A stretch of DNA of 64,000 bases, taken from contig JAFYHS010000012.1 of the NCBI GenBank assembly GCA_017539045.1, forward strand, positions 109,124-173,123, read 5' to 3'. Origin of the DNA: Bacteroidales bacterium. GTDB taxonomy: Bacteria > Bacteroidota > Bacteroidia > Bacteroidales > F082. Both the position numbers and the translations under genes were made by a program. Position 1 is the first letter of the stretch. Each line of letters begins with the position of its first letter. Positions 583 through 63,800 of this stretch are shown piece by piece. The notes under the pieces were generated by a model that saw only the letters and a list, made by a program, of their open reading frames with translations, was not told the origin of the DNA and did not search any database.

Positions 583-3500
583 ATGTTTATGAAAAAGAAA
601 ACGCTACTTTTCCTTTTTTTCCTTGCATTATTGAGCCCGTTGGCCTCGCTTGCCCAAAGCCTGACGGTGAGCGGTAAAGTCATCTCGAGCGACGACGGCT
701 ACGGTCTCCCTGGCGTCACCATTCAGGTGAAAGGCACCACCTCGGGGACGACCACCGACCTCGATGGTAACTACTCTGTGAAAGCCGACAGCCAGGATGT
801 GCTGATTTTCAGCTATGTGGGCTTTAAGACCAAAGAGATTGCCATTAAAGGCAAGAATACGATCAACGTCACCCTTGAGACCGACGCCCAGATGCTCGAC
901 GACGTGGTGGTCACCGCCCTTGGCATCAAGCGTCAGAAACGTGAGCTGGGTTATGCCACCGAAGAGATCGGTGGCGAGATGATCGCCAAGTCGGGCTCGG
1001 GTAGCGTCATCAGCGCCTTAAGCGGCCGTTCGGCGGGTGTGCAGATCATCAACCCCAACGGCGTCGACGGCGGCTCGTCGCGTATCACCATCCGTGGTAA
1101 CAACAGCATCTTCGGCGACAACCAGCCCCTCATCGTCGTCGATGGCGTGCCGATGTCGAACGAAGGCGGTGTCACCGACTGGAGCGGTGGTCGTGACTGG
1201 GGTACGGCCTTGAACAACATCAACCAAGAGGACATCGAGAGCCTCGACATCCTGAAAGGCCCCACGGCGGCAGCTCTTTACGGCTCGCGTGGCGGCAACG
1301 GCGTGGTGCTCATCACCACCAAGAAAGGATCGAAACAACGCGGCCTCGGCATCAGCTACTCTGCCGGTTTCAAGATCACGACACCTTATCTCTACCGCAC
1401 AGTGCAAAACAAATACGGCGCCGGTGGCCCCATCACCTTCCATACGCCGACCCTGACGCCCATCGAAGGTATGACGGATGAGAATGGCAACCAAGTGTAT
1501 GAATACCCAGGCATCTATAGCGTCGACAACGGTCCGGCGGGCGAGCCCACCAACACTACCTTCGGCTACTATGGCGGCGCCCAGAGCTGGGGTCCCGCGA
1601 TGAACGGCGAGAGCGTCCTTTGGTGGGACGGCGTGGTGAGAAAATACGACCCCCAGCCCGACAACCTGAAGATGCTCTTCAAGAACGGCCACACGATGAA
1701 CCACAACGTCGCCTTCCAAAACGCTGGCGACTTTGGTAGCGTCCGTGTGTCGTTCACCGACTCGCGCACCGATGCCATCATTGATAACTGTAACTTGCGT
1801 CAGACCACGGTCAATGTGGGTACTTTGATCAATGTGTCGGAGAAGATCAAGGTCGATGTGTCGTTCAATTACTTGGATTACTACCGCCTTAACTCGCCTG
1901 AGATCGGTGAGTCGAACAGCAACTTCAACAAAGGTCTGCTTTATAGCTGGCCCCGCAGCTGGAAAGGCCTCGAGGTCACATCCTACGAGAACCCCGACGG
2001 CACAATGAACCAGTTTGACGGCTATCCTTATCAATACATCTACAACAGTACCTTCTGGACGTTCTACAACAACAACACGACCCTCGACCGTGACAAGATG
2101 TACGGCTCTGTTCGCCTGATGTACGACGTCACGCCTTGGTTGAGTGCTAGCGCCAAGGTGGCCTTGGACTGGACAGCCGACAACTACACCACCAAACACA
2201 AGCCCACCACCATCGACGGTATGGCGGGCGGCTACTACTCAAAGAGCAAGTCGAACTCCGTAACTCGCGACATGGATTTCTTGCTCACTGCTTATAAGGA
2301 CAAGATCTTTGGCTCAAAGTTCAATGTAAGTCTTTCAGCCGGTGGTGAACAGTATTATGGTTACCGCGATGGTTTGAATGGCTCCTCCGGCAGGTGGGCC
2401 TATGCCAACTTGTATGCCATCAACAACTACTCTAATGCTACTGAACGCACCTTTGGAGAGTCGATGTGGGAAAAACAAGTCAATTCGTTGTACGCTTTCT
2501 TCAATTTGAGTTACAGCGACTGGATGTTCTTGGATATCACTGGACGTAACGATTGGTCATCGACCCTGCCCATTACCAACAACAGTTACTTCTATCCCTC
2601 GGCTACGTTGAGTTTCGTGCCGACCTCGGCCTTCAAGGACTGGAACTGGGGCCCGGTGAACTACCTGAAACTAAGAGGTTCGTGGGCCCAGACCGCCAGC
2701 GACACCGAACCCTATCAGCTGACATATACTTATAACACGGGCTCTTTTGGCCATCAATTGTCGGCCACCTTGCCTTCCGTTGTGCCGCCTTTGGAGCTGA
2801 AGCCGCAACGTCAACGCGCTTATGAATTGGGCTTCGACTTGGGATTGGGTGCGCGTTTCAATATGGACTTCACCTATTATGACATCTATTCTTGGGACCA
2901 GATCCTTTCCTCGCCGTTGGCTCCTTCATCGGGTGCCAACAACGTGACCATCAACACGGGTGTGGTGACCAACAAGGGTATCGAGGCCATCTTGACCTAC
3001 GACATCGCCCAGGGCAAGGATTACGGCGTGCAGGTGGGTTTGAACCTCGCCCGTAACAAGAACCGTATCGTTGATCTGGCTGGTTCCGACATGTATCTTC
3101 TTTCCGAGATTTGGGGTTCCAACGGTCCTGCCATCGCGGTTGAAGAAGGAGAGGAGTATGGCACCATCTACGGATGGGACTATGTCTATGAATACACCAT
3201 GCCCGACGGTTCCGTCGTGGGACCGTTCTACGATGCCAACGGCAAGCCTTTGCCGCTCCTCAACGAGACGGGTACCACCTATCTGAAAACCAGCAATCGT
3301 GTGCCGATTGGCAACTGCGCGCCTTTGGTGACGGGAGGTATCAACCTGAGGGCTTCCTATAAGAACTGGTCGCTCTACGCCTTGATCGACGCCAAGTTGG
3401 GTGGTCAGATTTATTGCGCATCCTACGTGGTGGGTATGCAGACGGGTCAAAGTCTTGAGACGCTTTATGAACGTGAGGGCAATGGCTTGCCCTACTATGA

Positions 3501-3927: not shown

Positions 3928-5616
3928 ATGAAAAGATATATTCTCATCATTTGTGCAGTAACAATAGCTTTAGCCTCCTGCACCAAGAACTTCGAAGAGA
4001 TGAACAAAGACCCGTTCTCGCCGACGGGAACGACCATCGAGGCCTTGTTTAACGGTGTGGTAAGCTCCTTGCAGCAGAGCATGAACGAGCAGTTCTACCT
4101 GCAAAACGAGATTTGGTACCCTGAGACGGAACTCGGCGCCTTGACGTCAGAGTCATGGGGTAACTCGCAGATAGGAACCTCAGAGCTTTGGACGAACTAT
4201 TATCTCATGCTGTCCAACATCCGTGAGTTGGAGAAACGCTTCGATGCGTACAACGAGGAACAGGGCGATGATGCCGTTTGTGACAAGGTGCGTGCCCAAC
4301 TCAACATCCTGAAGGCCTATCAGACCTTTAAAGTCACGGATATCTTTGGCGATATGCCTTATTCGCAGGCGGGTCGTATTTGGGATAACCCCTCATCGCA
4401 GGCCACCATGAAACCCGAATGGGACACCCAAGAGAGCATCTACAAATCGCTGTTGGAAGAGCTGGTATGGTCGCGCGACCTCTTGCATGCCGACTCCGTC
4501 ACCACTGCTAGCGGCAACGATTATTACAAGCTGCCTTATGACGTGCTGCTCAACAACGACTACACACTTTGGGCCGAGTTTGCCAACTCCCTCATCTTGC
4601 GCCACGGCCTGCGTATGTACGACAAGGATCCCAACTATGCCACACCTTTGCTGGTGGAGGCCTATAATTTCATCTACTCGAAGTTGAGTGCTTCGGGTGG
4701 TGTGGCTACGGGAGGCGCCATCTGCTTGTGGCCCAGTGTGTTGGGCACTAGCTGGGACACCAACTGGTCGTTCCGCGAACATAAGCACCTCCGTATGGGT
4801 GAGACCATCTGGAGCTGCCTCTCCTCGACCGACGACATGGACGGCAGCGGCATCTTCGACTACCGCACCTACCTCTTCTTCGACACAAGCCACAAGAACG
4901 ACAGCTTCCCCGACGGTGCCTGGCGTCCTTACCCGCAGATCCGTACCCTTGAGACGCCCACCGAAGGTGGTTCGCCTTATGCCCAAAGCCGTGATGGCAG
5001 TTATACCTTCAAAGGCCCATCATGTCTCTTCTCTCCCTTCAATTACTATCTCACCCGTGACGAGAGATACGTGCCGCAGATACTGGTCACCTACGCCGAT
5101 GTGCTCTTCATGAAAGCCGAAATCGAGGTTAGGAACATTGGCGGTATCATGCCTCCGCTGAATGCCGACGAATCCATTCGTTCTGGCGTCTACCAATCGT
5201 TCCTCTTCTGGACCCACATACCGCAACAAACCAGCCGCTGGACTTATTTTTATACGCCATACACCAACTATATCGGCAATTTGGATATTTGGTCGTATTG
5301 CAACAACATGGCGGCCAACGTGATGAACTACGCCGTATGGATGAATCCCGAATATGACGGCAGTCAGGAGTTTTACCTGAAGATGATCTACGAGCAGCGT
5401 TGGCTCAACCTCTTCCGTCAGCCTTGGGAAGCCTGGGCCTTAGCCCGCCGCACCATGGCGACGCCGACCACCACCAACCATGCCAAGCTGACTTCGTTCC
5501 GTATGGAATATCCCCAGAAGGAAATCGAATACAACTATGAAAACTATGCCGCACAGCTCGCTCGCATGTCGCATGGCGACACGAGGCAAACCAAGGTGTG
5601 GTGGAATGAGTTTTAG
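3928..5616 (+). CDS. SusD/RagB-family nutrient-binding outer-membrane lipoprotein
   Basis: Lipoprotein signal with lipobox (MKRYILIICAVTIALASC). 562 aa, located 12 nt downstream of the SusC-like gene, with an N-terminal region typical of SusD-like_2 proteins. Confidence 0.85.
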   Translation: MKRYILIICAVTIALASCTKNFEEMNKDPFSPTGTTIEALFNGVVSSLQQSMNEQFYLQNEIWYPETELGALTSESWGNSQIGTSELWTNYYLMLSNIRELEKRFDAYNEEQGDDAVCDKVRAQLNILKAYQTFKVTDIFGDMPYSQAGRIWDNPSSQATMKPEWDTQESIYKSLLEELVWSRDLLHADSVTTASGNDYYKLPYDVLLNNDYTLWAEFANSLILRHGLRMYDKDPNYATPLLVEAYNFIYSKLSASGGVATGGAICLWPSVLGTSWDTNWSFREHKHLRMGETIWSCLSSTDDMDGSGIFDYRTYLFFDTSHKNDSFPDGAWRPYPQIRTLETPTEGGSPYAQSRDGSYTFKGPSCLFSPFNYYLTRDERYVPQILVTYADVLFMKAEIEVRNIGGIMPPLNADESIRSGVYQSFLFWTHIPQQTSRWTYFYTPYTNYIGNLDIWSYCNNMAANVMNYAVWMNPEYDGSQEFYLKMIYEQRWLNLFRQPWEAWALARRTMATPTTTNHAKLTSFRMEYPQKEIEYNYENYAAQLARMSHGDTRQTKVWWNEF

Positions 5617-24111: not shown

Positions 24112-24135
24112 TGTAAAGAGCCTATTCGACACAAT

Positions 24136-24177
24136 CATTCTCAAAGGAGTCATTGCGGACTCCGATCCGCAATCTCC
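24136..24177 (+). repeat. Hairpin repeat family A, copy A1
   Basis: cattctcaaaggagtcattgcggactccgatccgcaatctcc; internal stem attgcgga/tccgcaat. Lies 27 nt upstream of GIY-YIG gene 1. Confidence 0.85.
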
Positions 24178-24204: not shown

Positions 24205-24597
24205 ATGTCACATCAAGGCTTTGTTTACATACTAACAAACAAGTACAACACAACGTTGTATATTGGTGTGACTAATGATTTAAAACGTAGAATTGCCGAA
24301 CATAAACTCCATATTAATAGTGGGTTTAGTGACAAATACAACGTTGAAAAGCTTGTATATTACGAAACCCACGAACAAATGTATGATGCTATTTCGCGAG
24401 AGAAGCAACTGAAAAATTGGCATAGAAAGTGGAAAGAGGATTTAATAAAGGAAAACAATCCTGAGTGGAATGATTTAGCTGAAAGCATCGGTTTGGATGA
24501 AGAGTATGTGCAATCAGTAAAAGAGCATTATGAGGACATGAGTACTGCTGAAGCGTCGTCCAAAAGTGTAGGAGATTGCGGATCAAGTCCGCAATGA
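24205..24597 (+). CDS. GIY-YIG nuclease family protein (small URI-domain protein, COG2827-like) with an extended C-terminal tail
   Basis: GFVYILTNKYNTTLYIGVTNDLKRRIAEH...KLVYYETHEQMYDAISREKQLKNW covers the GIY...YIG, R and E motifs. The last 9 codons and the stop are supplied by an inverted copy of hairpin repeat family A. Confidence 0.85.
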   Translation: MSHQGFVYILTNKYNTTLYIGVTNDLKRRIAEHKLHINSGFSDKYNVEKLVYYETHEQMYDAISREKQLKNWHRKWKEDLIKENNPEWNDLAESIGLDEEYVQSVKEHYEDMSTAEASSKSVGDCGSSPQ

Positions 24598-24598
24598 C
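24571..24598 (-). repeat. Hairpin repeat family A, copy A3 (inverted)
   Basis: ggagattgcggatcaagtccgcaatgac is the reverse complement of the A1 core except in the loop. Overlaps the last codons and stop of GIY-YIG gene 1. Confidence 0.85.
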
Positions 24599-24673
24599 GT
24601 TTCACGGCGAAGTATATTCAAAATGCGCGGTTATTGTTATTACAGTTAGAAAAACCTACTTAAACAAATCATT

Positions 24674-24715
24674 CATTCTCAAAGGAGTCATTGCGGACTC
24701 CAATCCGCAATCTCC
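24674..24715 (+). repeat. Hairpin repeat family A, copy A2
   Basis: Identical to A1 over 42 nt except for one loop base (g to a). Lies 30 nt upstream of rfbA. Confidence 0.85.
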
Positions 24716-25683: not shown

Positions 25684-26892
25684 ATGAAAAGAACCATCAT
25701 CATCACTGGAGGCGCTGGCTTCATCGGCAATCACGTCGTTCGCCTCTTCGTCAACAAATATCCTGAATACAAGATCATCAACCTCGACAAGTTGACCTAC
25801 GCAGGCAACCTCGCCAACCTGAAGGACATCGAAGACAAGCCGAACTACCGCTTTGTCAAGATGGACATCTGCGACTTCGAGGGTGTCTACAAGTTGATGC
25901 AGGACGAACACGTCGACGGCATCATCCACCTCGCCGCCGAGAGCCATGTGGACCGCTCCATCAAAGACCCGTTCACCTTTGCGCAGACCAATGTGATGGG
26001 CACGCTGAGCCTGCTGCAGGCTGCCAAACTCTATTGGGAAGCCCAACCAGAGCCTTGGAAAGTTAAGGTCCCTGAGCCCGTCGAAGGGCCGACCATAAAA
26101 GACGGTGCTTCGACAGGCTCAGCAACCTGCGTTCCTTGCCGCTTCTACCACATCAGCACCGATGAGGTCTATGGTGCCTTGGAGCTGACCGACCCCGAAG
26201 GCATCATGCCTCCTTTCAGCACCAAGGCCAGCAGCGGACAGCACCACTTGGCCTATGGCAGCAAGTTCTTCACCGAAGACCTGAAATACCAACCCCATAG
26301 TCCCTATAGTGCCGCCAAGGCAAGCAGCGACCACTTTGTGCGCGCCTTCCACGACACCTACGGCATGCCCACGGTGGTGACCAACTGCTCCAACAACTAC
26401 GGCCCATACCAGTTCCCCGAGAAGCTGATCCCGCTGTTCATCAATAACATCCGTCACCGCAAGCCGCTGCCTGTCTACGGCAAAGGTGAGAACGTGCGCG
26501 ACTGGCTCTATGTGGAAGACCACGCCCGCGCCATCGACCTCATCTTCCATGAAGGCAAGGTGGCCGAGACCTACAACATCGGCGGCTTCAATGAGTGGAA
26601 GAACATCGACCTCATCAAGGTGTTGATCAATACCGTTGACCGCCTGCTGGGTCGTCCCGAAGGAGCCGATATGGACCTCATCACCTATGTCACCGACCGT
26701 GCCGGACATGATATGCGCTATGCCATCGACTCGACCAAACTCCAGAAAGAACTGGGTTGGGAGCCCAGCCTGCAGTTTGAGGAGGGCATTGAGAAGACCG
26801 TCCGTTGGTATCTCGATAACCAGGAATGGATGGACAACGTGACAAGTGGTGACTATCAGAAGTACTACGACGACATGTACAAAAACAGATAA
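25684..26892 (+). CDS. rfbB: dTDP-glucose 4,6-dehydratase carrying a ~20-aa in-frame repeat-derived insertion
   Basis: IIITGGAGFIGNH...HISTDEVYG...SPYSAAKASSDHFVRAF...VTNCSNNYGPYQFPEKLIP. At 402 aa it is longer than the RmlB sequences I recall. The extra segment KVPEPVEGPTIKDGASTGSAT coincides with hairpin element B1. Confidence 0.95.
   Translation: MKRTIIITGGAGFIGNHVVRLFVNKYPEYKIINLDKLTYAGNLANLKDIEDKPNYRFVKMDICDFEGVYKLMQDEHVDGIIHLAAESHVDRSIKDPFTFAQTNVMGTLSLLQAAKLYWEAQPEPWKVKVPEPVEGPTIKDGASTGSATCVPCRFYHISTDEVYGALELTDPEGIMPPFSTKASSGQHHLAYGSKFFTEDLKYQPHSPYSAAKASSDHFVRAFHDTYGMPTVVTNCSNNYGPYQFPEKLIPLFINNIRHRKPLPVYGKGENVRDWLYVEDHARAIDLIFHEGKVAETYNIGGFNEWKNIDLIKVLINTVDRLLGRPEGADMDLITYVTDRAGHDMRYAIDSTKLQKELGWEPSLQFEEGIEKTVRWYLDNQEWMDNVTSGDYQKYYDDMYKNR
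26067..26127 (+). repeat. Palindromic repeat family B, copy B1 (inside rfbB)
   Basis: ggtccctgagcccgtcgaagggccgacc-ataaaa-gacggtgcttcgacaggctcagcaacc, with imperfectly complementary arms. Confidence 0.8.
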
Positions 26893-32223: not shown

Positions 32224-32240
32224 ATAAGATGTAAAAGTGA

Positions 32241-32291
32241 GCTTTCCATGTCATACCGACCGACGTAGGAGGGAGTGTATCTATGGAAAGC
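32241..32291 (+). repeat. Hairpin repeat family C, copy C-a
   Basis: gctttccatgtcataccga...gagtgtatctatggaaagc; outer stem gctttccat/atggaaagc. Confidence 0.75.
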
Positions 32292-32327
32292 GGCACAAAG
32301 AAACAAGGTTTAAAGGACGGTTTTAGC

Positions 32328-32370
32328 AAGCATAGATACACTCGCCTTTTGGGCTCGGTATGACATGCTT
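32328..32370 (-). repeat. Hairpin repeat family C, copy C-b (inverted relative to C-a)
   Basis: aagcatagatacactc...tcggtatgacatgctt. Its reverse complement shares catgtcataccga...gagtgtatctatg with C-a. Confidence 0.75.
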
Positions 32371-32393
32371 TCTAAAACCTGCAGAAAAACAAA

Positions 32394-33788
32394 ATGTTCA
32401 ACAAAACTGACCCATCCTACTTTGACGGTCCATGGACCTTCGAGAAGACCGAACACGCCGTGCTCGGCCTCTGCAAGATCATCGATCGTTATGCCCATAA
32501 GCTGACACTGGAAGACCTGCAGAACGACTCACGTTGCGCCCGCATTCCGGACCTCAGCCTCGATAGGGTGCAGGAGGTCATCGCCGCCGTGGAAGCCAAG
32601 CTCTGGCGTGGTGCTAAGTTCTTCGAGAACGAGGTGATCTATCACACTGGTCCGCATCACGACGACATCATGTTGGGTCTCATGCCCTTCATCAACAGGC
32701 AGTTGAGGACGCCTACCAATCAGGTGCATTTCGCCATCATGACCTCGGGTTATCACTCCGTCACCGATGAATTCCTTCAGAATGCCTTGGAAGACACCTT
32801 GGACTACCTGCATCAAGGCCGCATCCAGATGGTGCTTTACCCCGATTTCTTTGAGCGGGGCTACCGTTTCAAGCAGGAGAAGGACATCCACCATTACCTC
32901 GACAACGTAGCCCGCAAAAACCCCGATGAGATGCGTCGTGGCTTCTGCCATCGCATCCTTCGCGATGCCGTAGGGCTGTGGGGGCTGAAGAACGTCGCCG
33001 ATGTGGAAGCACGCTTCAGGATGGAGATCGAAAACCTCAAGGAGGGTAAGCCCAACAGCAGTGAGCTCCAGAAGCTCAAAGGCGAGATCCGTGAGTTTGA
33101 AGAGGAGCTCGTCTGGGCCTATGCCGGCACCGCCTTGGACCATATCCATCATCTGAGGTTAGGGTTGTATGAAAGTAAAAGCGAGGTGCCTGAGCCTGTC
33201 GAAGGCCCGACTAATAATGAACCGGCCCTTCGACAAGCTCAGGGACCTTGGTCTCCCAACCGTCAGCGTGACGTCGAGCCCATCCTCAATCAATTGCGTG
33301 CGCTGAAGCCCACCGTCATCACCGTAGCCATTGACTCGGAGGGTCAAGGACCCAACACGCACTACAAGGTCATGCAGAGCATCGCCGAGGCCGTCAGGCT
33401 GTGGGGCGAGGAGGCCGACCTCAGCCAGCTGAGGATCTTCGGCTACCGTAACGTGTGGTCGACCTTCCATCCTGCTGAGGCCAACGTATACGTGCCCGTG
33501 TCGCTCAACGCTTTTGCAGTGTTCGAGAAGGCCTTCAAAGACAGTTACCTGACGCAATATAAGGCAGAGTTTCCCAATCCCGACTTCGACGGACCTTTCA
33601 GCGAGCTGGCGGAGCAGATTTGGGTGAAGAACTATAAGGATATCCAGTTCATCCTCGGGAAGAACTTCTTCTACGAAAACGACCACCCGCTCATTCGCGC
33701 CACGCATGGACTGATTTTCTTGAAGGAAATGGACGCGAAGGACTTTGTGGGCTTGGCGGAGGAGATGAAACAAAAGATAAATGTGTAG
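32394..33788 (+). CDS. PIG-L/LmbE-like domain protein (related to the C-terminal half of long Bacteroidales NagB-type proteins), carrying an in-frame repeat insertion
   Basis: HTGPHHDDIMLG resembles the PIG-L HPDD motif, and DSEGQGPNTHYK resembles the second conserved block as I recall it. The segment VPEPVEGPTNNEPALRQAQGPW coincides with hairpin element B2. Confidence 0.45.
   Translation: MFNKTDPSYFDGPWTFEKTEHAVLGLCKIIDRYAHKLTLEDLQNDSRCARIPDLSLDRVQEVIAAVEAKLWRGAKFFENEVIYHTGPHHDDIMLGLMPFINRQLRTPTNQVHFAIMTSGYHSVTDEFLQNALEDTLDYLHQGRIQMVLYPDFFERGYRFKQEKDIHHYLDNVARKNPDEMRRGFCHRILRDAVGLWGLKNVADVEARFRMEIENLKEGKPNSSELQKLKGEIREFEEELVWAYAGTALDHIHHLRLGLYESKSEVPEPVEGPTNNEPALRQAQGPWSPNRQRDVEPILNQLRALKPTVITVAIDSEGQGPNTHYKVMQSIAEAVRLWGEEADLSQLRIFGYRNVWSTFHPAEANVYVPVSLNAFAVFEKAFKDSYLTQYKAEFPNPDFDGPFSELAEQIWVKNYKDIQFILGKNFFYENDHPLIRATHGLIFLKEMDAKDFVGLAEEMKQKINV
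33185..33247 (+). repeat. Palindromic repeat family B, copy B2 (inside the PIG-L-like gene)
   Basis: ggtgcctgagcctgtcgaaggcccgac-taataatgaa-ccggcccttcgacaagctcagggacc. The arms pair at 19 of 21 positions by my count. Confidence 0.85.
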
Positions 33789-33791
33789 TTT

Positions 33792-33850
33792 AAGCCGCCT
33801 ATGTCATTCCAAGCGGAGGATGTGCGACTGGAATCTATAGGCGGCGGCTT
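33792..33850 (+). repeat. Hairpin repeat family C, copy C-c
   Basis: aagccgcctatgtcattccaagcggaggatgtgcgactggaatctataggcggcggctt; outer stem gccgcctat/ataggcggc and inner stem attcca/tggaat. Confidence 0.8.
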
Positions 33851-33873
33851 ACAATACTAACAAACAATCTATT

Positions 33874-34155
33874 TTGAATCAGTATTGGGTATATATGATG
33901 CAGAGTGCTAATGGACGAGCACTATATACAGGAGTCACAAACGACCTAGTTCGTCGTGTTGGAGAGCATAAAGAGGGCAAAGGGTCCTTTTTTACTGCAA
34001 AGTATAAATGTCATAAATTGGTTTATTATGAAGATTTTGGTTTGATGGACCAAGCCATTCTTAGAGAGAAGGAAATAAAGAATATGACACGGGCAGATAA
34101 AGAAAAGCTTATTGATACTATCAATCCACAACGACTAGATCTATTAGAACAATAA
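33874..34155 (+). CDS. GIY-YIG nuclease family protein (small URI-domain protein, COG2827-like)
   Basis: YWVYMMQSANGRALYTGVTNDLVRRVGEH...KLVYYEDFGLMDQAILREKEIKNM; 93 aa. The TTG start from the track preserves the first beta-strand. Sits between family C hairpins. Confidence 0.8.
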   Translation: MNQYWVYMMQSANGRALYTGVTNDLVRRVGEHKEGKGSFFTAKYKCHKLVYYEDFGLMDQAILREKEIKNMTRADKEKLIDTINPQRLDLLEQ

Positions 34156-34160
34156 AGATA

Positions 34161-34211
34161 GCCTTCCATGTCATTCCAAGTGGAGGTTGTGTGACTGGAA
34201 TCTATGGAAGG
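34161..34211 (+). repeat. Hairpin repeat family C, copy C-d
   Basis: gccttccatgtcattccaagtggaggttgtgtgactggaatctatggaaggc. The core is nearly identical to C-c, and the outer stem differs but still pairs. Confidence 0.8.
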
Positions 34212-34251
34212 CGGCATGAAAGAAAAGACATTAAATATATGACGGTATTAT

Positions 34252-34300
34252 AAAGCATAGATTCCAAACGCACGTTCCCCTGCAAGGAATGACATGCTTT
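34252..34300 (-). repeat. Hairpin repeat family C, copy C-e (inverted relative to C-d)
   Basis: aaagcatagattccaaacgcacgttcccctgcaaggaatgacatgcttt. Its reverse complement shares catgtcattcc...tggaatctatg with C-d. Confidence 0.75.
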
Positions 34301-34323
34301 ATAATCCCTGCAAAAACAACTCT

Positions 34324-34911
34324 ATGGACTTCCTATCTCACCATTGGCTCGACATCACCACCACGGCCCTCGGCCTGGCCTACATCCTCCTGGAATACAA
34401 GGCCAGCGTCTGGATGTGGGTCGTCGGCTTCGTGATGCAGAGCCTCGGCATCGTCTTATACTACCAGAAAGGCCTCTACGCCGACTGCGGCATGGAGTTC
34501 TACTACCTCGCCATGACCGTCTACGGTTTCATCGCCTGGATGCGTCACAAGCAGAAGGTCGCTGACCTCCCCATCCGTCACATGCCCAAGAAGATGGCCT
34601 TTATCTGGCTGGGTGCCGGTTTGGCGATCTGGGCTCTCATCTATTTCGTCTTGAGCCGTTTCACCAACTCCAACGTCCCTGTGGCCGATGCCTTCACCAC
34701 CGCCTTGAGCATCGTGGGCATCTGGGCTTTGGCACGCAAGTACCTCGAGCAGTGGTTCGTGTGGATTGTGGTCGACATCGTTACCAGCGCATTGTATTTC
34801 TACAAGGACATCCCCTTCAAGGCCAGCCTTTATGCCTTGTATGTCGTCATCGCGGTGTTCGGCTACTTCAAGTGGAAGAAGATGATGCAGGAAAAGGCCC
34901 AAACGGCCTGA
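34324..34911 (+). CDS. pnuC: Nicotinamide riboside transporter PnuC family
   Basis: The pattern of transmembrane spans and LEYKASVWMWVVGFVMQSLGIVLYYQKGLYADCGMEFYYLAMTVYGFIAW match PnuC. I chose the ATG at 34324 because the track start at 34294 lies inside hairpin C-e. Confidence 0.8.
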   Translation: MDFLSHHWLDITTTALGLAYILLEYKASVWMWVVGFVMQSLGIVLYYQKGLYADCGMEFYYLAMTVYGFIAWMRHKQKVADLPIRHMPKKMAFIWLGAGLAIWALIYFVLSRFTNSNVPVADAFTTALSIVGIWALARKYLEQWFVWIVVDIVTSALYFYKDIPFKASLYALYVVIAVFGYFKWKKMMQEKAQTA

Positions 34912-44357: not shown

Positions 44358-45347
44358 ATGCTCACCATCATCTGCCCCATCTACAACGAAGAAAAATACA
44401 TTGCCCGTTGCATTGAGAGCATATTGCGGCAGGATTATCCCAAAGATGATTTGGAAGTCCTTTTTGTGGATGGTATGAGTACCGACCACACAAGGGAAAT
44501 CATTGCCTCTTACCTGCCGCAATGCCCCTTTCTGCGTGTGCTCGACAATCCGCACAAGATTGTGCCTTACGCCATGAACAAAGGCATCAGCGAGGCCAAG
44601 GGCGATATCATCATGCGCATCGATGCACATACCTTCTATGAACCCAACTACTGCTCGGCCATCGTGAAAAGACTGAAGGAACTAGATGCCGACAATGTGG
44701 GTTGCGTGTGCAAGACGGATGTGCTTAACAAGACTTCCAAGACCTTGGCCATCCGCGAGGTGCTGAGCAACAAGTTCGGTGTGGGCAACTCGGCTTTTCG
44801 CACGGGCATCGAAGGGGTCAAAGAAGTAGACACGGTGCCTTTCGGCTGCTGGCCGAAGAGGGTGTTCGAAAAATATGGTCTATATGATGTACGTTTGGTG
44901 CGTAACCAAGACATTGAGCTGAGCAAGCGCATCATCAACGGTGGTGGTAAAATCTATATCATCCCCGATACCTTCTGCACCTATCTGGCGCGTGAGACTT
45001 TCAGCGACTTGGCCAAAAATAACTTCGGCAACGGCAAATGGAATATTCTCACGGTGTATTACACCCGTCAGATGAAGTCTTTGTCGCTACGCCATTTCAT
45101 CCCGTTGCTGTTTGTGTTGGGAGTCATCCTTCCTGCTTTAGTAGGCCTATTCTGGCATCCTGCTTTACTGTTGTCTGCTTTTGTACTACTTGTCTATTTG
45201 GTGGCTTTGTGCGGCATAAGTGCCCAACTCGCTGTTCAGAAGCATCTGAACTCTTTCTATCTCCTCTGGAGCTTCATCACCTTGCATTGCAGCTACGGAT
45301 GGGGGTCGCTAGTAGGTCTTCTTTCTTTGCCATTCAAAAAACGATAA
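44358..45347 (+). CDS. Glycosyltransferase family 2
   Basis: LTIICPIYNEEKYIARCIESILRQDYPKDDLEVLFVDGMSTDHTREII...RIDAH; C-terminal transmembrane spans. Confidence 0.9.
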   Translation: MLTIICPIYNEEKYIARCIESILRQDYPKDDLEVLFVDGMSTDHTREIIASYLPQCPFLRVLDNPHKIVPYAMNKGISEAKGDIIMRIDAHTFYEPNYCSAIVKRLKELDADNVGCVCKTDVLNKTSKTLAIREVLSNKFGVGNSAFRTGIEGVKEVDTVPFGCWPKRVFEKYGLYDVRLVRNQDIELSKRIINGGGKIYIIPDTFCTYLARETFSDLAKNNFGNGKWNILTVYYTRQMKSLSLRHFIPLLFVLGVILPALVGLFWHPALLLSAFVLLVYLVALCGISAQLAVQKHLNSFYLLWSFITLHCSYGWGSLVGLLSLPFKKR

Positions 45348-46004: not shown

Positions 46005-47407
46005 TGATCAAAAAACGCATCTACCTCTGCCTCGCTCATATGAGCGACGCAGGCCTCGAACAGAAATATATACAAGAGGCCTTCGACACCAACTGGGTGG
46101 TGCCGCTGGGACCCAATGTCAATGGGTTTGAAAAGGACCTGGAGTCCTTTGTGAATGAGATTAAGGTCCCTGAGCTTGTCGAAGGGCCGACCTTCAATGA
46201 CGGCATTTCGACAGGCTCAACGACCTGCTTAAACAAACGTGTTGTTGCTCTCTCCGCCGGCACGGCGGCCATCCATCTCGCCTTAATCGCCTGCGGCGTG
46301 GGCCCTGGCGACGAGGTCATCGTGCAGTCGTTCACCTTCTGCGCCTCGTCCAACCCTATCACCTACCTCGGCGCGACCCCCGTCTTCGTCGACAGCGAGA
46401 AGGACTCGTGGAACATCGACCCCGAGCTGATGGAAGAGGCCATCCGCGACCGCATCGCCAAGACGGGCCGTAAGCCCAAGGCCATCGTGCCCGTGGCGCT
46501 CTATGGCATGCCTTACGACATCGACCGTATCATGGAGATTGCCAACCGCTACGACATCCCCGTCATCGAAGACGCCGCCGAAGGCTTCGGCAGCCGCTGG
46601 AAGGGACAGGTGCTGGGCACCTTCGGCCGTTATGGCGTACTCTCCTTCAACGGTAACAAGATGATCACCACCTCGGGTGGCGGCGCACTCATCTGCCCCG
46701 ACACACAGGCTTGGCAGCGCATCATGTGGCTGGCCACACAAGCCCGCGAGGCCTACCCTTATTACCAACATGAGGCCATTGGCTACAACTACCGCATGTC
46801 GAACATCTGCGCCGGCATCGGCCGTGGACAGATGACCGTCGCCAATGACCATATCAACCACCACAAGCATGTGCAGAAGATGTATGAGGAGCTGCTGGCT
46901 GGTGTGCTGGGCATACATGTCCACTCGCAGCCTTGTTCCCTTTACGACCGTCATGCCGGACTTGATCCGGCATCTCATGAGATTGCGGGTCAAGCCCGCA
47001 ATGACGGTATGCAGGGTGAGAAGTACGACAGTAACTATTGGTTATGCACCATCACCCTCGACCCAAGCCTGCACGTCAAAGGACAAGAAAACGCCTATAA
47101 GACCGTTATACAAGGTGCGGTAGGTGGTGCGGCAGGCGTGGTTCATGCCAGCAAGAGCGCCCACACCGACTGCGAGCCCAACGCCAACGTGGAGGCCTTG
47201 CGCGTCATCCTCGACCAGGCGGGCATCGAGGCAAGGCCCTTATGGAAGCCCATGCATAAACAGCCCGTCTATAAAGACGCTCCTGCCTATGTCAACGGCG
47301 TCAGCGAAAGCCTCTTCAAGGTAGGCATGTGCCTGCCCAGTGGCCCCTGTGTCAGCGACGAGGACGTGGACTATATCGTAACGTGTATCAAAAACGCTAT
47401 CATCTAA
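46004..47407 (+). CDS. DegT/DnrJ/EryC1-family sugar aminotransferase (PglE/WcfR-like) carrying two in-frame repeat-derived insertions
   Basis: EQKYIQEAFDTNWVVPLGPNV...ALSAGTAAIHLAL...SFNGNKMITTSGGGAL (PLP Lys)...YNYRMSNI...RPLWKPMHKQPVY. At 467 aa it is about 90 aa longer than family members I recall. Confidence 0.9.
   Translation: MIKKRIYLCLAHMSDAGLEQKYIQEAFDTNWVVPLGPNVNGFEKDLESFVNEIKVPELVEGPTFNDGISTGSTTCLNKRVVALSAGTAAIHLALIACGVGPGDEVIVQSFTFCASSNPITYLGATPVFVDSEKDSWNIDPELMEEAIRDRIAKTGRKPKAIVPVALYGMPYDIDRIMEIANRYDIPVIEDAAEGFGSRWKGQVLGTFGRYGVLSFNGNKMITTSGGGALICPDTQAWQRIMWLATQAREAYPYYQHEAIGYNYRMSNICAGIGRGQMTVANDHINHHKHVQKMYEELLAGVLGIHVHSQPCSLYDRHAGLDPASHEIAGQARNDGMQGEKYDSNYWLCTITLDPSLHVKGQENAYKTVIQGAVGGAAGVVHASKSAHTDCEPNANVEALRVILDQAGIEARPLWKPMHKQPVYKDAPAYVNGVSESLFKVGMCLPSGPCVSDEDVDYIVTCIKNAII
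46165..46225 (+). repeat. Palindromic repeat family B, copy B3 (inside the aminotransferase gene)
   Basis: ggtccctgagcttgtcgaagggccgacc-ttcaatga-cggcatttcgacaggctcaacgacc. Confidence 0.8.
46950..47005. repeat. Composite of two family A-like hairpins in opposite orientation, located inside the aminotransferase CDS
   Basis: gtcatgccggacttgatccggcatc + tcatga + gattgcgggtcaagcccgcaatgac. Translated in frame as RHAGLDPASHEIAGQARNDG. Confidence 0.8.
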
Positions 47408-60800: not shown

Positions 60801-63800
60801 GCCCATCCCGGCGACGAAATCCATTTCAGCATCGGCAGTTCGGCCAAGGATGTGGACATTTGGGTGCAGTTGCTCCATGGCGACGAAATCCGTCTGGACA
60901 AGAAAATCACCGTCAGCAACAGTGTGCAGACCTTTACTTATAAGGTGACCGAAGGCGACCGTGGTGGCCTCAATTTCCGTTATGTCCTCTTGAAGGAAAA
61001 TGCTTTCAGGACTGGTGACGATCATATTTCCGTGCCTTTCGACAACTATGATTTGGACGTGAAATTGGCCACCGTGCGCGACAAACTCAACCCCGGTGCT
61101 GAAGAGACTTGGGAAGTGACCGTCAACGACTACAAGAAAAAACCTTTGGAGGCCGCTTTACTGGCTGGAATGTATGATGCCTCATTGGATGAATTTGAAC
61201 GCAATTACTGGAGTTTCAGTTTGTCGCCTTGGGGCCCACGCAGTTTCCGTTTTTCCACCTGTGCGCACGACTTCACCTCATCCAACACGGGGCTGGAATA
61301 CTTTTATTTCGCTGAACTCTTCAACTTCAGCCTGCCTTCTGATGCGCCCTTCTTTGATTTTGGATATGGCTTCGGAATGCGCCGTTATAGAAAAGGTGGG
61401 CGTGTGCTTTATGATGTTGTGGAAGAATATGCCGCACCGATGGAAGCGGGAGCAGCGTTAGAGAAATCCTCCAATTCAGTGGATTACGAAATCCCCTTGG
61501 TGGCACAAAATGCTGCGGATGAAGAAATGGTCGAAATAACGAAACAAGAAGGCGTTTATCTTTATGAATCAGAAGGACAGAACGAAAAAACCGAAGAATT
61601 CGCCGAGCCCACCCTCCGCGAGAACTTCAACGAGACCGCCTTCTTCTTCCCGCAACTGCGCACGAACAACGACGGTAGCGCGACCTTCAGCTTCACCATG
61701 CCCGATGCCCTCACACGTTGGCGCCTGATGCTGTTGGCTTACACCAAGGACCGCAAGACTGGCAGCAAGGACTACACTTTCACTTCGTCGAAGCCCGTGA
61801 TGATTATGGCCGACATGCCGCGCTATATGTACGACAACGACGAACTATGGTTTGTGGCCAACGTCATCAACACGGGCGATGAGCCTGTCACGCCCAAGGC
61901 GAAACTCGAGATTTTTGATGCGGGCACGATGCAACCTGTGAATTTGATTGTTATGGACGGCCCTTCGACAGGCTCAGGGACCTACACGATACCGATGGAA
62001 ACCATACAGCCCGGTCGCAGCAAGGAAGTACGCTGGAAAGTGAAGGGACAATATGATTTGAGTCTGTTGGCCTTCCGTTTCACGGCCTACGCGGGACAGT
62101 TCAGTGATGCCGAGCAGCATCTCCTGCCCGTGTTGAGCAGCGAAATCTTCATGACGCAAACCCTGCCCATCACCGTGAAGGCCGAGACCGAGAAAACCTT
62201 CGACTTCGAGGCCATCGCCAACCCCGACAGCCACGAGCGCGACTACAGCCTGACCTTGAACTTCAGCACCAACCCCGTGTGGTACGCCGTGCAGGCCCTG
62301 CCTTACCTGGCCAACGTCAGCACCGACCGCGCCGAGACGGCCTTCTATGTGTTCTATGCCAACACGCTTTCGTCCTACATCGCCGACCACATCCCGAACC
62401 TCTTGAACTACATCAAGAAATGGCAAATCGAGACGCCCGATGCCCTGCTCTCGCAACTCGAGAAAGACCAAGACTTGAAAGCCATCATGTTGCAAGAAAC
62501 GCCGTGGGTACTTGAGGCCAAGAGCGAAACCGAGCAACGTAGCCGCATCGCCAACCTGTTTGAAATCAACACGCTGCGCGGCCAACAAACCCGTGCGCTG
62601 CAACTCATCCAGCAGAAACAGAAATACAATGGCGGCTGGCCTTGGATGGATGGAATGCCCGAGAGTCCCTACATCAGCACCTATATCTTGAGCGGCTTCG
62701 GCAAGTTGCAGAAGATGGGCGCTTGGAGTTCGTTGAGCAAGGCCGACCAAAACACCGCCCAAAGCATCTGCGACAAGGCCGTGCGTTACCTCGAATACGA
62801 AGTGGCCGAGACCTATCGCAACATGAAGCGTTACAGCAAAGGCAAAGACTGGCCCATCGGTTCCAGCACTTTGAACGAACTCTATGCCTTGAGTTTCTTC
62901 AAGGAGCAAAACTCTGACAAGGACTTTGCCACGGCCAAGAAATACTACCTTGGCAGCCTCGACAAGGAGTGGACTTCGTTCAATTTCAACCAACGCTCGA
63001 AGGGAGCCTTGGTGCTCTACCGCAACGGCAACGAAAAGACCGCCAAGCTGATGATTCAGAGTTTCAAGGAATGTGCCCAGAAAAACGAGCAAATCGGCAT
63101 GTACTGGCCGAAGAAATACTTCTCGTTTGAATCGCATATCGCCACCCACGCCAACATCATGGCCGCCTTCGCCGAGATTGACCAGAACCAGGAGATGATT
63201 GACGAACTGCGTGTGTGGCTGCTGACCCAGAAGCAGACCAACAAATGGGAAAACTCCGCCTCCACCGCCGATGCCATCTATGCCCTGCTCATGCGCGGCA
63301 GCGATTGGTTCGAGGAAGGGAAGGAAGTCATCCTGCGCTTCGGCAACACGCCTATCAGCACCGAGGGCGGCGTAGCCGGCACGGGCTTCATCCAACGCCG
63401 TTGGAACGCCAACGAAGTGACACAAGACATGCGTCAACTCACCGTCAACAACCCGACCCCGCACTTGGTCTGGGGCGGTCTGTTCCGCCAGTATTTCGTC
63501 CCGATTGACGAAGTCAAGAGCGACGAGTCGGGCTTTACCATCAAGCGCGAGTTGTTTGTGGAGACGGTCACTGACAAGGGCAAGAAACTTGTTCCCGTGG
63601 AGAAGCAAGCCTTGAAAGTCGGTGACAAACTGACTGTGAAGATCACCTTCACCAGCCAGCAAGACATGAGTTTCGTCTTCATCAAGGACCTCCGCGCCGC
63701 CGGTTTCGAGCCGATAGAGCAGATCTCGCGCTATGAATACAACGACCGCATGAGCTACTACCAGAGCAACACCGACACCGACATGGAGTTCTTCATCGAG

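Follow-up and report, generated by a model that had tools for sequence, protein, structure and literature searches.

Two GIY-YIG genes and their hairpin repeats

We analyzed a stretch of 64,000 nucleotides (nt) from a rumen Bacteroidales bacterium (GTDB F082; GenBank assembly GCA_017539045.1, contig JAFYHS010000012.1, forward-strand positions 109,124 to 173,123), here called the window. It contains two short genes for predicted GIY-YIG nucleases, each lying among oriented hairpin repeats of its own class, and both gene products resemble the Ssn family of single-domain GIY-YIG proteins. The gene at the center of our analysis, gene 2, encodes 93 amino acids (aa) and is accompanied by hairpins that we call the C family:

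33874..34155, + strand: gene 2, predicted Ssn-like single-domain GIY-YIG nuclease, 93 aa, TTG start
33792..33851, + strand: hairpin C-c, forward, ending ~22 nt 5' of the gene 2 start; DNA fold of -15.7 kcal/mol, z -3.9
34160..34215, + strand: hairpin C-d, forward, beginning 5 nt past the gene 2 stop; recognized as a direct repeat and by its fold
34247..34305, - strand: hairpin C-e, inverted partner of C-d; core 34256-34295; folds at -27.1 (- strand) and -21.1 (+ strand)
32240..32294, + strand: hairpin C-a, solo forward copy without an adjoining gene; recognized by family match and fold
32319..32379, - strand: hairpin C-b, inverted partner of C-a; recognized by family match and fold

The first-pass annotation, made from the letters alone, had placed a 93-aa GIY-YIG open reading frame (ORF) between C-c and C-d, and the repeat coordinates together with a match to the Pfam GIY-YIG domain confirm this (PF01541, E 3.6e-16, residues 3-76 covered, no other domain found). 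Gene 2 has the single-domain build of ~90-100 aa that is typical of the Ssn family, and its residues Tyr-7, Tyr-18, and Glu-65 correspond to Tyr-6, Tyr-17, and Glu-64, which were mutated in SsnA of Neisseria meningitidis, and are invariant in our alignment A1. An AlphaFold model (pLDDT 88) has the GIY-YIG fold, with UPF0213 protein BH0048, Slx1, and the GIY-YIG domains of UvrC as the best structural matches. NCBIfam returned an informative family for the protein of neither gene. Two near-identical copies of gene 2 from other samples differ from it at 8 synonymous and 0-1 nonsynonymous positions, which argues that it is a maintained gene under purifying selection. The TTG start is found in the window and in the related loci L001 and L182; relatives start with ATG.

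The same annotation had described a core common to C-c and C-d in direct orientation, followed by an inverted copy. The window indeed holds two copies of the 40-nt core and no more, on the + strand with 0 mismatches (33801-33840 and 34168-34207), and 0 of 100 shuffles contain it; the wider direct repeat (33793-33848 versus 34160-34215) is 84% identical, and the inverted copy C-e follows on the - strand as described. C-d and C-e form a forward-36 nt-inverted dimer that resembles a bacterial interspersed mosaic element (BIME). The C-a/C-b pair lies ~1.5 kb upstream of gene 2, between a UDP-glucose dehydrogenase gene and a 464-aa ORF. The longest pnuC ORF starts from an ATG within hairpin C-e (window 34294-34323); orthologs suggest that the true start would be the ATG at 34324 (MDFLSHHW).

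The C hairpin is a strand-specifically selected structure

All five C copies of the window fold into a two-tier hairpin (z -3.4 to -5.7 compared with shuffles). The inner stem is ATTCC/GGAAT (ATAC/GTAT in C-a and C-b) and encloses a central segment of ~14-24 nt; a 2-nt TC bulge is present throughout, the outer stem differs in sequence from copy to copy, and its closure, ATG/TAT, is conserved. A metagenome scan with the pattern CATGTCATTCC-N14-32-GGAATCTATG returned at least 120 loci (886 kb). All fetched loci together hold at least 324 unique C copies, most of them solo, intergenic, and dispersed away from any GIY-YIG gene.

In the 324 unique copies, seven outer-stem positions form Watson-Crick pairs in 79-95% of cases, each with several base-pair types. 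RNAalifold recovered the two-tier hairpin from 30 diverse C copies with compensatory changes at 8 of 15 pairs, and at most outer-stem positions both sides had changed in 12-19 of the 30 sequences. Mismatches in the outer stem are G·T (98 cases) far more often than A·C (36 cases). Because a G·T on one strand is an A·C on its complement, this excess argues that one folded strand is under selection; the closing pair is G·T in 30 of 30 aligned copies, where the collecting pattern fixes those two bases. The C hairpin is therefore a selected, strand-specific structure, as a single-strand-specific binder would predict. A scan for intrinsic terminators found no T tract and nothing terminator-like at any hairpin, a sigma-70 promoter scan found nothing at the hairpins, and neither did Rfam at gathering thresholds or at a permissive E-value.

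A 23-nt mini-insert, ATGCT[AC]TGCATTCGACG[AT]AGTCA, recurs inside C-type hairpins between …GGAA and ATCTATG. We observed it at locus L092 (~2715-2770) and downstream of the gene in L112 and L113, between which it is polymorphic. It explains a secondary mode of hairpin length at 64-66 nt and possibly lies behind a mode at 83 nt as well.

A second gene/hairpin module in the same genome

About 9 kb from gene 2, the window contains a second GIY-YIG gene among shorter hairpins, the A type:

24205..24597, + strand: gene 1, second Ssn-like GIY-YIG paralog, 130 aa, with the same domain and a 37-aa C-terminal tail
24132..24177, + strand: hairpin A-1 (hairpin 24149-24175), GGAG-TC-ATTGCGGA-CTCCGA-TCCGCAAT-CTCC, ~30 nt 5' of gene 1
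24573..24598, - strand: hairpin A-3, an inverted copy that overlaps gene 1 at its 3' end
24670..24715, + strand: hairpin A-2 (hairpin 24687-24713), direct repeat of A-1, 96% identical
46947..47008, no strand assigned: solo head-to-head A-type dimer, arms 46950-46975 (+) and 46980-47005 (-), both tagged CGTCAT

The short A hairpin sequence GTCATTGCGGACTCCGATCCGCAATCT is found on the + strand at 24149 and 24687. The two proteins had been described as sharing GIY-YIG core motifs and being otherwise divergent, and their identity of 48% over 91 aa agrees with this. Oriented hairpins with GTC, an AT-initiated stem, and a closing C stand on both sides of gene 1 as they do of gene 2, and gene 1 with its A-type hairpins is thus a second module of the same kind.

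Both hairpin types share the skeleton G-TC-AT[stem]-loop-[stem']AT-C(T), which reads GTC-ATTGCGGA-CTCCGA-TCCGCAAT-C in the A type and GTC-ATTCC…GGAAT-C in the C type. They differ in three ways: the stem arms of A enclose a loop of 5-6 nt, CTNGA, and those of C ~14-24 nt; C has an extended, covarying outer stem; and the immediate flanks in C are CATG…CTATG. Our first-pass annotation had assigned a different hairpin family to each gene: each gene does lie among its own class, but A and C are variants of one superfamily rather than unrelated families.

The last residues of gene 1, GDCGSSPQ, are encoded by the inverted hairpin A-3; since its tail is translated hairpin, the ORF reads through its own downstream repeat. 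The tails of relatives (GDRGSSPR, ADCGSSPQ) are likewise translated inverted A-type hairpins, and the peptide is conserved (alignment A1).

Relation to the Ssn/NTS system

Chenal et al. (Nat Commun 2025; PMC11893778) define Ssn as single-domain GIY-YIG proteins (CDD cd10448; 94 aa for N. meningitidis SsnA), whose genes are flanked by hairpin repeats (NTS/SRM) with the NTS consensus CGTCATTCCCGCGMAVGCGGGAATCYRG. Ssn binds the NTS only as single-stranded DNA (ssDNA), and only one of its strands; the cut falls a few nucleotides upstream. SsnA shows no binding to RNA. Cleavage depends critically on the three bases preceding the palindrome, and binding on the C that follows it. Among ssnA homologs, 71% have at least one SRM within 5 kb and 42% have SRMs on both sides. 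Homologs cleave their own repeats with partial cross-reactivity, some foreign SRMs being cut, and the Neisseria system modulates natural transformation (PMC11893778).

The hairpins of the window carry the NTS skeleton, and the C type additionally has GTCATTCC…GGAATCTA in common with it. A scan with an alignment of both paralogs, taking one genome per species, found more than 596 relatives from many phyla; 80 loci were kept. A loose scanner (GTC[AT]…C, at least 7 pairs) was dropped in favor of stricter, class-specific patterns because, with 59 matches compared with 49 in shuffles, it performed no better than chance. The flanks of many of the 80 loci contain GTCAT-stem-loop-stem-ATC hairpins. 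In the window, a stricter GTCAT…ATC scan still produced ~6 chance matches and missed 3 of the 5 C copies. In the 80 loci, a strict skeleton scan gives 0.73 matches per kb up to 400 nt from the gene, compared with 0.042/kb at distances above 1 kb, a 17-fold enrichment beside GIY-YIG genes across phyla. In the typical layout, the gene has a hairpin on its own strand upstream (median distance 55 nt) and an inverted one downstream (median 29 nt).

The tie to N. meningitidis SsnA and cd10448 is an indirect bridge through a protein from an uncultured gammaproteobacterium (locus L042), which shares 53% identity with gene 2 and 51% with gene 1 and has exactly Tyr-6, Tyr-17, and Glu-64, the residues mutated in SsnA. 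Its gene is preceded at 9 nt by TGTCATTCCCGCGCAGGCGGGAATCCAG, which agrees with the NTS consensus at 27 of 28 positions, and is followed at 4 nt by an inverted copy. Loci L081 and L091 resemble L042; homologs 49-53% identical are flanked by near-canonical NTS.

We thus consider gene 2 with its C hairpins to be probably (at about 0.72) an Ssn-type module, in which the C hairpins would be its version of the SRM/NTS, the CGTC-tagged class of repeats resembling repetitive extragenic palindromes (REPs). Homology, architecture, structural selection, the association of protein clade and hairpin class, and mobility, described below, are the observations that support it. With Ssn, the window genes share the single domain of ~93 aa, the identical Tyr/Tyr/Glu spacing, the oriented flanking repeats (GTC, AT-first stem, C), and the many solo, dispersed copies. 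They differ in their host, in the hairpins, in that two divergent paralogs with a hairpin class each are 9 kb apart, and in the partly hairpin-encoded tail of gene 1; nuclease activity of the window proteins is predicted from this likeness.

Several observations weigh against the assignment. The published SRM search motif, HGTCWYN(0-2)YYVSBRHN(0-5)WNVSBRGN(0-2)RNCYNB, matches neither hairpin class: it hits 0 of 10 hairpins of the window and one unrelated sequence at 45122. Near the gene, it is found in only 6 of the 80 homolog loci, missing 74, at a density of 0.12/kb next to the gene compared with 0.009/kb; we take it as a hand-made search heuristic and not as a definition. The C hairpin, with ~24 nt between its inner arms, the TC bulge, and a covarying outer stem of 10 bp, exceeds any described SRM, and the 37-aa C-terminal extension of gene 1 is absent from the canonical family. 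A search seeded with the L042 protein had no Neisseria protein among the 120 matches listed. Finally, exclusive recognition by each paralog is not assured, because homologs cross-cleave and A and C share the critical flanks.

The system is already known in kind, and the locus is a new example of it. New here, as far as the available part of the published description extends, are the rumen Bacteroidales lineages in the Ssn group, the presence of two co-resident paralog/hairpin pairs, and the clear empty and occupied sites. Also new is a hairpin class, missed by the published motif, that has a long center and an additional outer stem. As most hairpin variants escape that motif, counts of Ssn-associated repeats are too low, at least for rumen Bacteroidales.

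Each protein clade keeps to its own hairpin class

We looked up exact proteins in public assemblies, most of them from rumen metagenomes, and took local loci of at most 20 kb. Hairpins were counted up to 450 nt from each gene, and the loci were grouped into clusters according to their outer flanks. Relatives of gene 1 (60-66% identical) form 4 clusters, with 2-4 A-type and 0 C-type hairpins; examples of the former are CCTCATTCCGGACTTGATCCGGAATC, CCTCATGCCGCACTTGATGCGGCATC, and CTCATTGCGGGCGTAGACCAGCAATC. Relatives of gene 2 (82-100% identical) form 8 clusters, 6 of them robust and 2 consisting of short contigs, with 1-8 C-type and 0 A-type hairpins. The partition is kept in 12 of 12 flank clusters, which has a chance of 1/495 if the clusters are independent. 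Approached from the hairpin side, 113 of the 120 C-hairpin loci listed lack a GIY-YIG gene, and the remaining 7 all have a gene of the gene 2 type, one of them cut by the contig end. Strict A-type hairpins occur in 10 of these 120 loci (0 in shuffles). A and C hairpins thus share contigs yet stay unmixed around genes. Within each clade, the stems vary widely; what is fixed is the CTNGA loop in A and the CATG…CTATG closure with the long center in C.

The one-to-one association of protein clade and hairpin class that had been proposed from the window alone therefore holds in every related locus we fetched, and the statistical pairing is real, without being proof of biochemical specificity, because a gene and its flanks may descend together and be kept together by recombination between like repeats. 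The further proposal of cognate nuclease/hairpin pairs stands as far as the association goes and has a parallel in the published Ssn/NTS pairs; association does not tell specificity from co-inheritance. The cognate-pair idea is also not new, since such pairs have been shown experimentally (PMC11893778). From sequence, each paralog may favor its own hairpin variant.

A third clade of GIY-YIG genes, encoding 96 aa, was seen in L002 (17374-17661), L004 (11855-12142), and, near position 5000, L019 and L024. Its insertion site is the 3' end of a UDP-GlcNAc 2-epimerase gene; the last codons of the latter are duplicated, and a palindrome like those of repeat family B follows. Homologs from Bacteroidaceae (L014, L019, L024, L032) are flanked by GTCATCCTGAGCGNAGTCGAAGGATCT. 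This flank has CCTGAGC..GTCGAAGG in common with family B, which points to a possible third pairing of clade and hairpin.

The gene and its hairpins move as a unit

In locus L003, 1 nt separates the stop codon of the upstream ORF from the pnuC ATG, and the 535-nt block 33789-34323 is absent; because of this junction, we interpret the block, comprising C-c, gene 2, C-d, and C-e, as an insertion. In L002-L011, a 90%-identical gene occupies the intergenic region one further upstream, at the site of C-a/C-b in the window, and in L002 it lies between direct repeats of 17 nt from the hairpin 5' arm, AGCCTCCTATGTCATTC. L001 encodes an identical gene 2 protein and has one extra forward/inverted hairpin pair. 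Two identical tandem genes of the gene 2 type, with an inverted and a forward hairpin between them, are found in L112, L114, and L115, and a single gene in L113 (region 3001-3769 in L112, compared with 3001-3279 in L113). The unit of gene and hairpins shifts its position and copy number among related genomes, and the cassette thus moves.

A small gene for a four-helix-bundle protein (Pfam 23S_rRNA_IVP) is found at the site of the gene 2 block in L002 (11810-12157) and L004 (6294-6641); it is another small gene type that recurs in intergenic regions of Bacteroidales.

Alternative explanations and a possible mechanism

Two other accounts are compatible with an Ssn-type module. Gene and hairpins could be inherited together without specificity, both paralogs recognizing any GTCAT…ATC hairpin and the cassette descending or recombining with like repeats. 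We find this doubtful, even though A and C share the GTC/AT…AT/C flanks reported to be most critical and published homologs cross-cleave some foreign SRMs (PMC11893778), and even though the 17-nt repeat in L002 and the C pair that the empty site of the window already carries are consistent with recombination by way of homologous hairpins. What speaks for specificity instead is that no swap occurs in the 12 flank clusters, although both hairpin types are found on the same contigs, and that the class-specific features are fixed despite the widely varying stems. In addition, the two proteins are as far apart (48%) as each is from the gammaproteobacterial homolog (51-53%), so their separation is old and maintained. 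In the other account, the nuclease acts mainly in the homing or transposition of a selfish cassette, as a RAYT (REP-associated tyrosine transposase) does in a REPtron; it would insert gene and hairpin at hairpin sites and seed the solo hairpins rather than serve the host. The block absent from L003 and the gene in the neighboring intergenic region in L002-L011 agree with it, as do the tandem copies in L112 compared with the single gene in L113, the extra hairpin pair in L001, the 113 of 120 listed C-hairpin loci without a gene, and the forward/inverted bracketing that resembles the terminal inverted repeats of insertion sequences. Yet we know of no transposition or strand-transfer chemistry for GIY-YIG nucleases this small, passive movement by repeat recombination is possible, and purifying selection with wide vertical retention fits a host function as well. 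The sole experimental data, moreover, indicate ssDNA restriction affecting transformation (PMC11893778), and we regard a selfish cassette as unlikely.

Two further explanations are poorly supported. That the hairpins are RNA-level elements (terminators, mRNA stabilizers, or small RNAs) unrelated to the nuclease, whose gene merely tends to land in intergenic regions, would agree with the intergenic position and stability of the copies, with the tolerated G·U-compatible pairs, and with the proposal that many REPs act as RNA (Di Nocera 2013, PMC3733652). It is very improbable in view of the missing Rfam matches and T tracts, the lack of anything terminator-like, the occurrence of hairpins in both orientations relative to neighboring genes, their 17-fold enrichment beside GIY-YIG genes, and the inability of SsnA to bind RNA (PMC11893778). 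An integron-like cassette bounded by folded attC-type sites is suggested by a small ORF that lies between imperfect direct hairpin repeats and is absent from the orthologous site. The neighboring genes include no integrase, however, the hairpins are dispersed and not arrayed, and the cargo is always of the GIY-YIG family, which leaves this explanation barely any weight. The attC sites have the R''/R' consensus RYYYAAC/GTTRRRY, which the GTCAT…ATCT core lacks, and we rejected membership in this class.

For an Ssn-type module, the behavior of N. meningitidis SsnA offers a model. The GTCAT strand would turn single-stranded during replication, on entry of conjugative or transforming DNA, or in transcription bubbles, and would then fold into the hairpin. 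By analogy, the nuclease would bind it through the oriented flanks, GTC before the stem and C after it, and cut a few nucleotides upstream. This could affect incoming or replicating ssDNA, and hairpin or cassette might spread directly or via repair and recombination. Enzymatic activity, the strand and site of cleavage, specificity, and biological role are all predicted here on the SsnA model. The most far-reaching combination appears improbable when taken as a whole. It would comprise two (possibly three) orthogonal Ssn/hairpin pairs in one Bacteroidales genome, each nuclease recognizing and propagating only its own class, a cassette moving actively between hairpin-bearing intergenic sites, the C hairpin as a new recognition architecture, and Ssn as the dedicated enzyme that the CGTC-type REP superfamily has long lacked.

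Comparison with other repeat and nuclease systems

Di Nocera et al. (BMC Genomics 2013; PMC3733652) described a superfamily of CGTC-tagged REPs, present in Bacteroidetes, with a CGTC, TGTC, or CCTC tag, an 8-9 bp stem that starts with A-T and T-A pairs, a loop of 4-5 nt, and "no dedicated transposase"; dRS3 of Neisseria is CGTC-1. The A type corresponds to this definition (for example, CGTCATTGCGGGCTTGACCCGCAATC at 46980-47005), sharing the tag, an 8-bp stem, a 5-6 nt loop, frequent head-to-head dimers, and the occurrence in Bacteroidetes. The C type has the tag and follows the AT rule, but its stem and loop sizes do not conform, and it far exceeds the four described CGTC families in length. 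In contrast to that survey, which found no dedicated enzyme (PMC3733652), hairpins flank GIY-YIG genes here, and the "orphan" CGTC-tagged REPs of 2013 are thereby linked to GIY-YIG genes in Bacteroidales.

With RAYT/REP systems and BIMEs, the modules have in common a gene embedded among dispersed extragenic hairpins, clade-specific hairpin families, dimers of alternating orientation, and a conserved tag beside a covarying stem. They differ in the protein, which is of the GIY-YIG and not of the HUH/Y1 (IS200/IS605-type) transposase class, and in the tag, (C/T/A)GTC instead of GTAG. We rejected membership on these two grounds; the resemblance is one of working only. Free-standing homing endonucleases of the I-TevI type are similar in their GIY-YIG domain, in being small mobile ORFs, and in presence/absence polymorphism at orthologous sites. 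In contrast to them, gene 2 has no DNA-binding domain or linker and does not lie in an intron or phage, and its surroundings are repeated hairpins rather than a unique double-stranded DNA (dsDNA) target. UPF0213/YhbQ and Slx1 provide the closest solved structures (1ZG2, E 2e-5; Slx1, TM ~0.63) at only 23-31% identity. To our knowledge, no flanking hairpin repeats have been reported for UPF0213 genes; Slx1 requires Slx4 and cuts branched dsDNA.

The locus offers a within-genome test case, in which two deeply diverged Ssn paralogs are accompanied by distinct hairpin classes with common critical flanks. It is also a compact system to map the determinants of hairpin specificity for a nuclease of 93 aa, which bears on the promotion of Ssn enzymes as site-specific cutters of ssDNA. 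Its value is bounded by the general phenomenon having been published.

Further observations in the window and in related loci

A gene of the gene 1 type (P0180; L103-L111, ~3001-3375) lies directly 5' of a ComF-like phosphoribosyltransferase gene and dprA. This position beside genes for DNA uptake and processing may be a coincidence; we note it as Ssn affects transformation in Neisseria.

A third repeat family in the window, a palindrome of ~70 nt with arms AGGTCCCTGAGC..GTCGAAGGGCCG, is found at 33184-33255, 26063-26130, 46157-46228, and 61951-61983 and folds as DNA at -20 to -25 kcal/mol (z -5 to -7). Inside the 464-aa ORF (32394-33788), the copy at 33184-33255 lies in frame and encodes VPEPVEGPTNNEPALRQAQGPWSP. 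The orthologous ORF of L002 (440 aa) lacks the palindrome segment, and that of L003 (458 aa) contains a related one. The copy is an insertion that keeps the reading frame of its gene, comparable to the Rickettsia palindromic elements (RPEs).

Between 38000 and 44000, within a polysaccharide-biosynthesis region, the GC content of the window is 35-39% compared with ~52% elsewhere, and this low-GC block probably represents a variable segment for capsule or O antigen that is exchanged horizontally.

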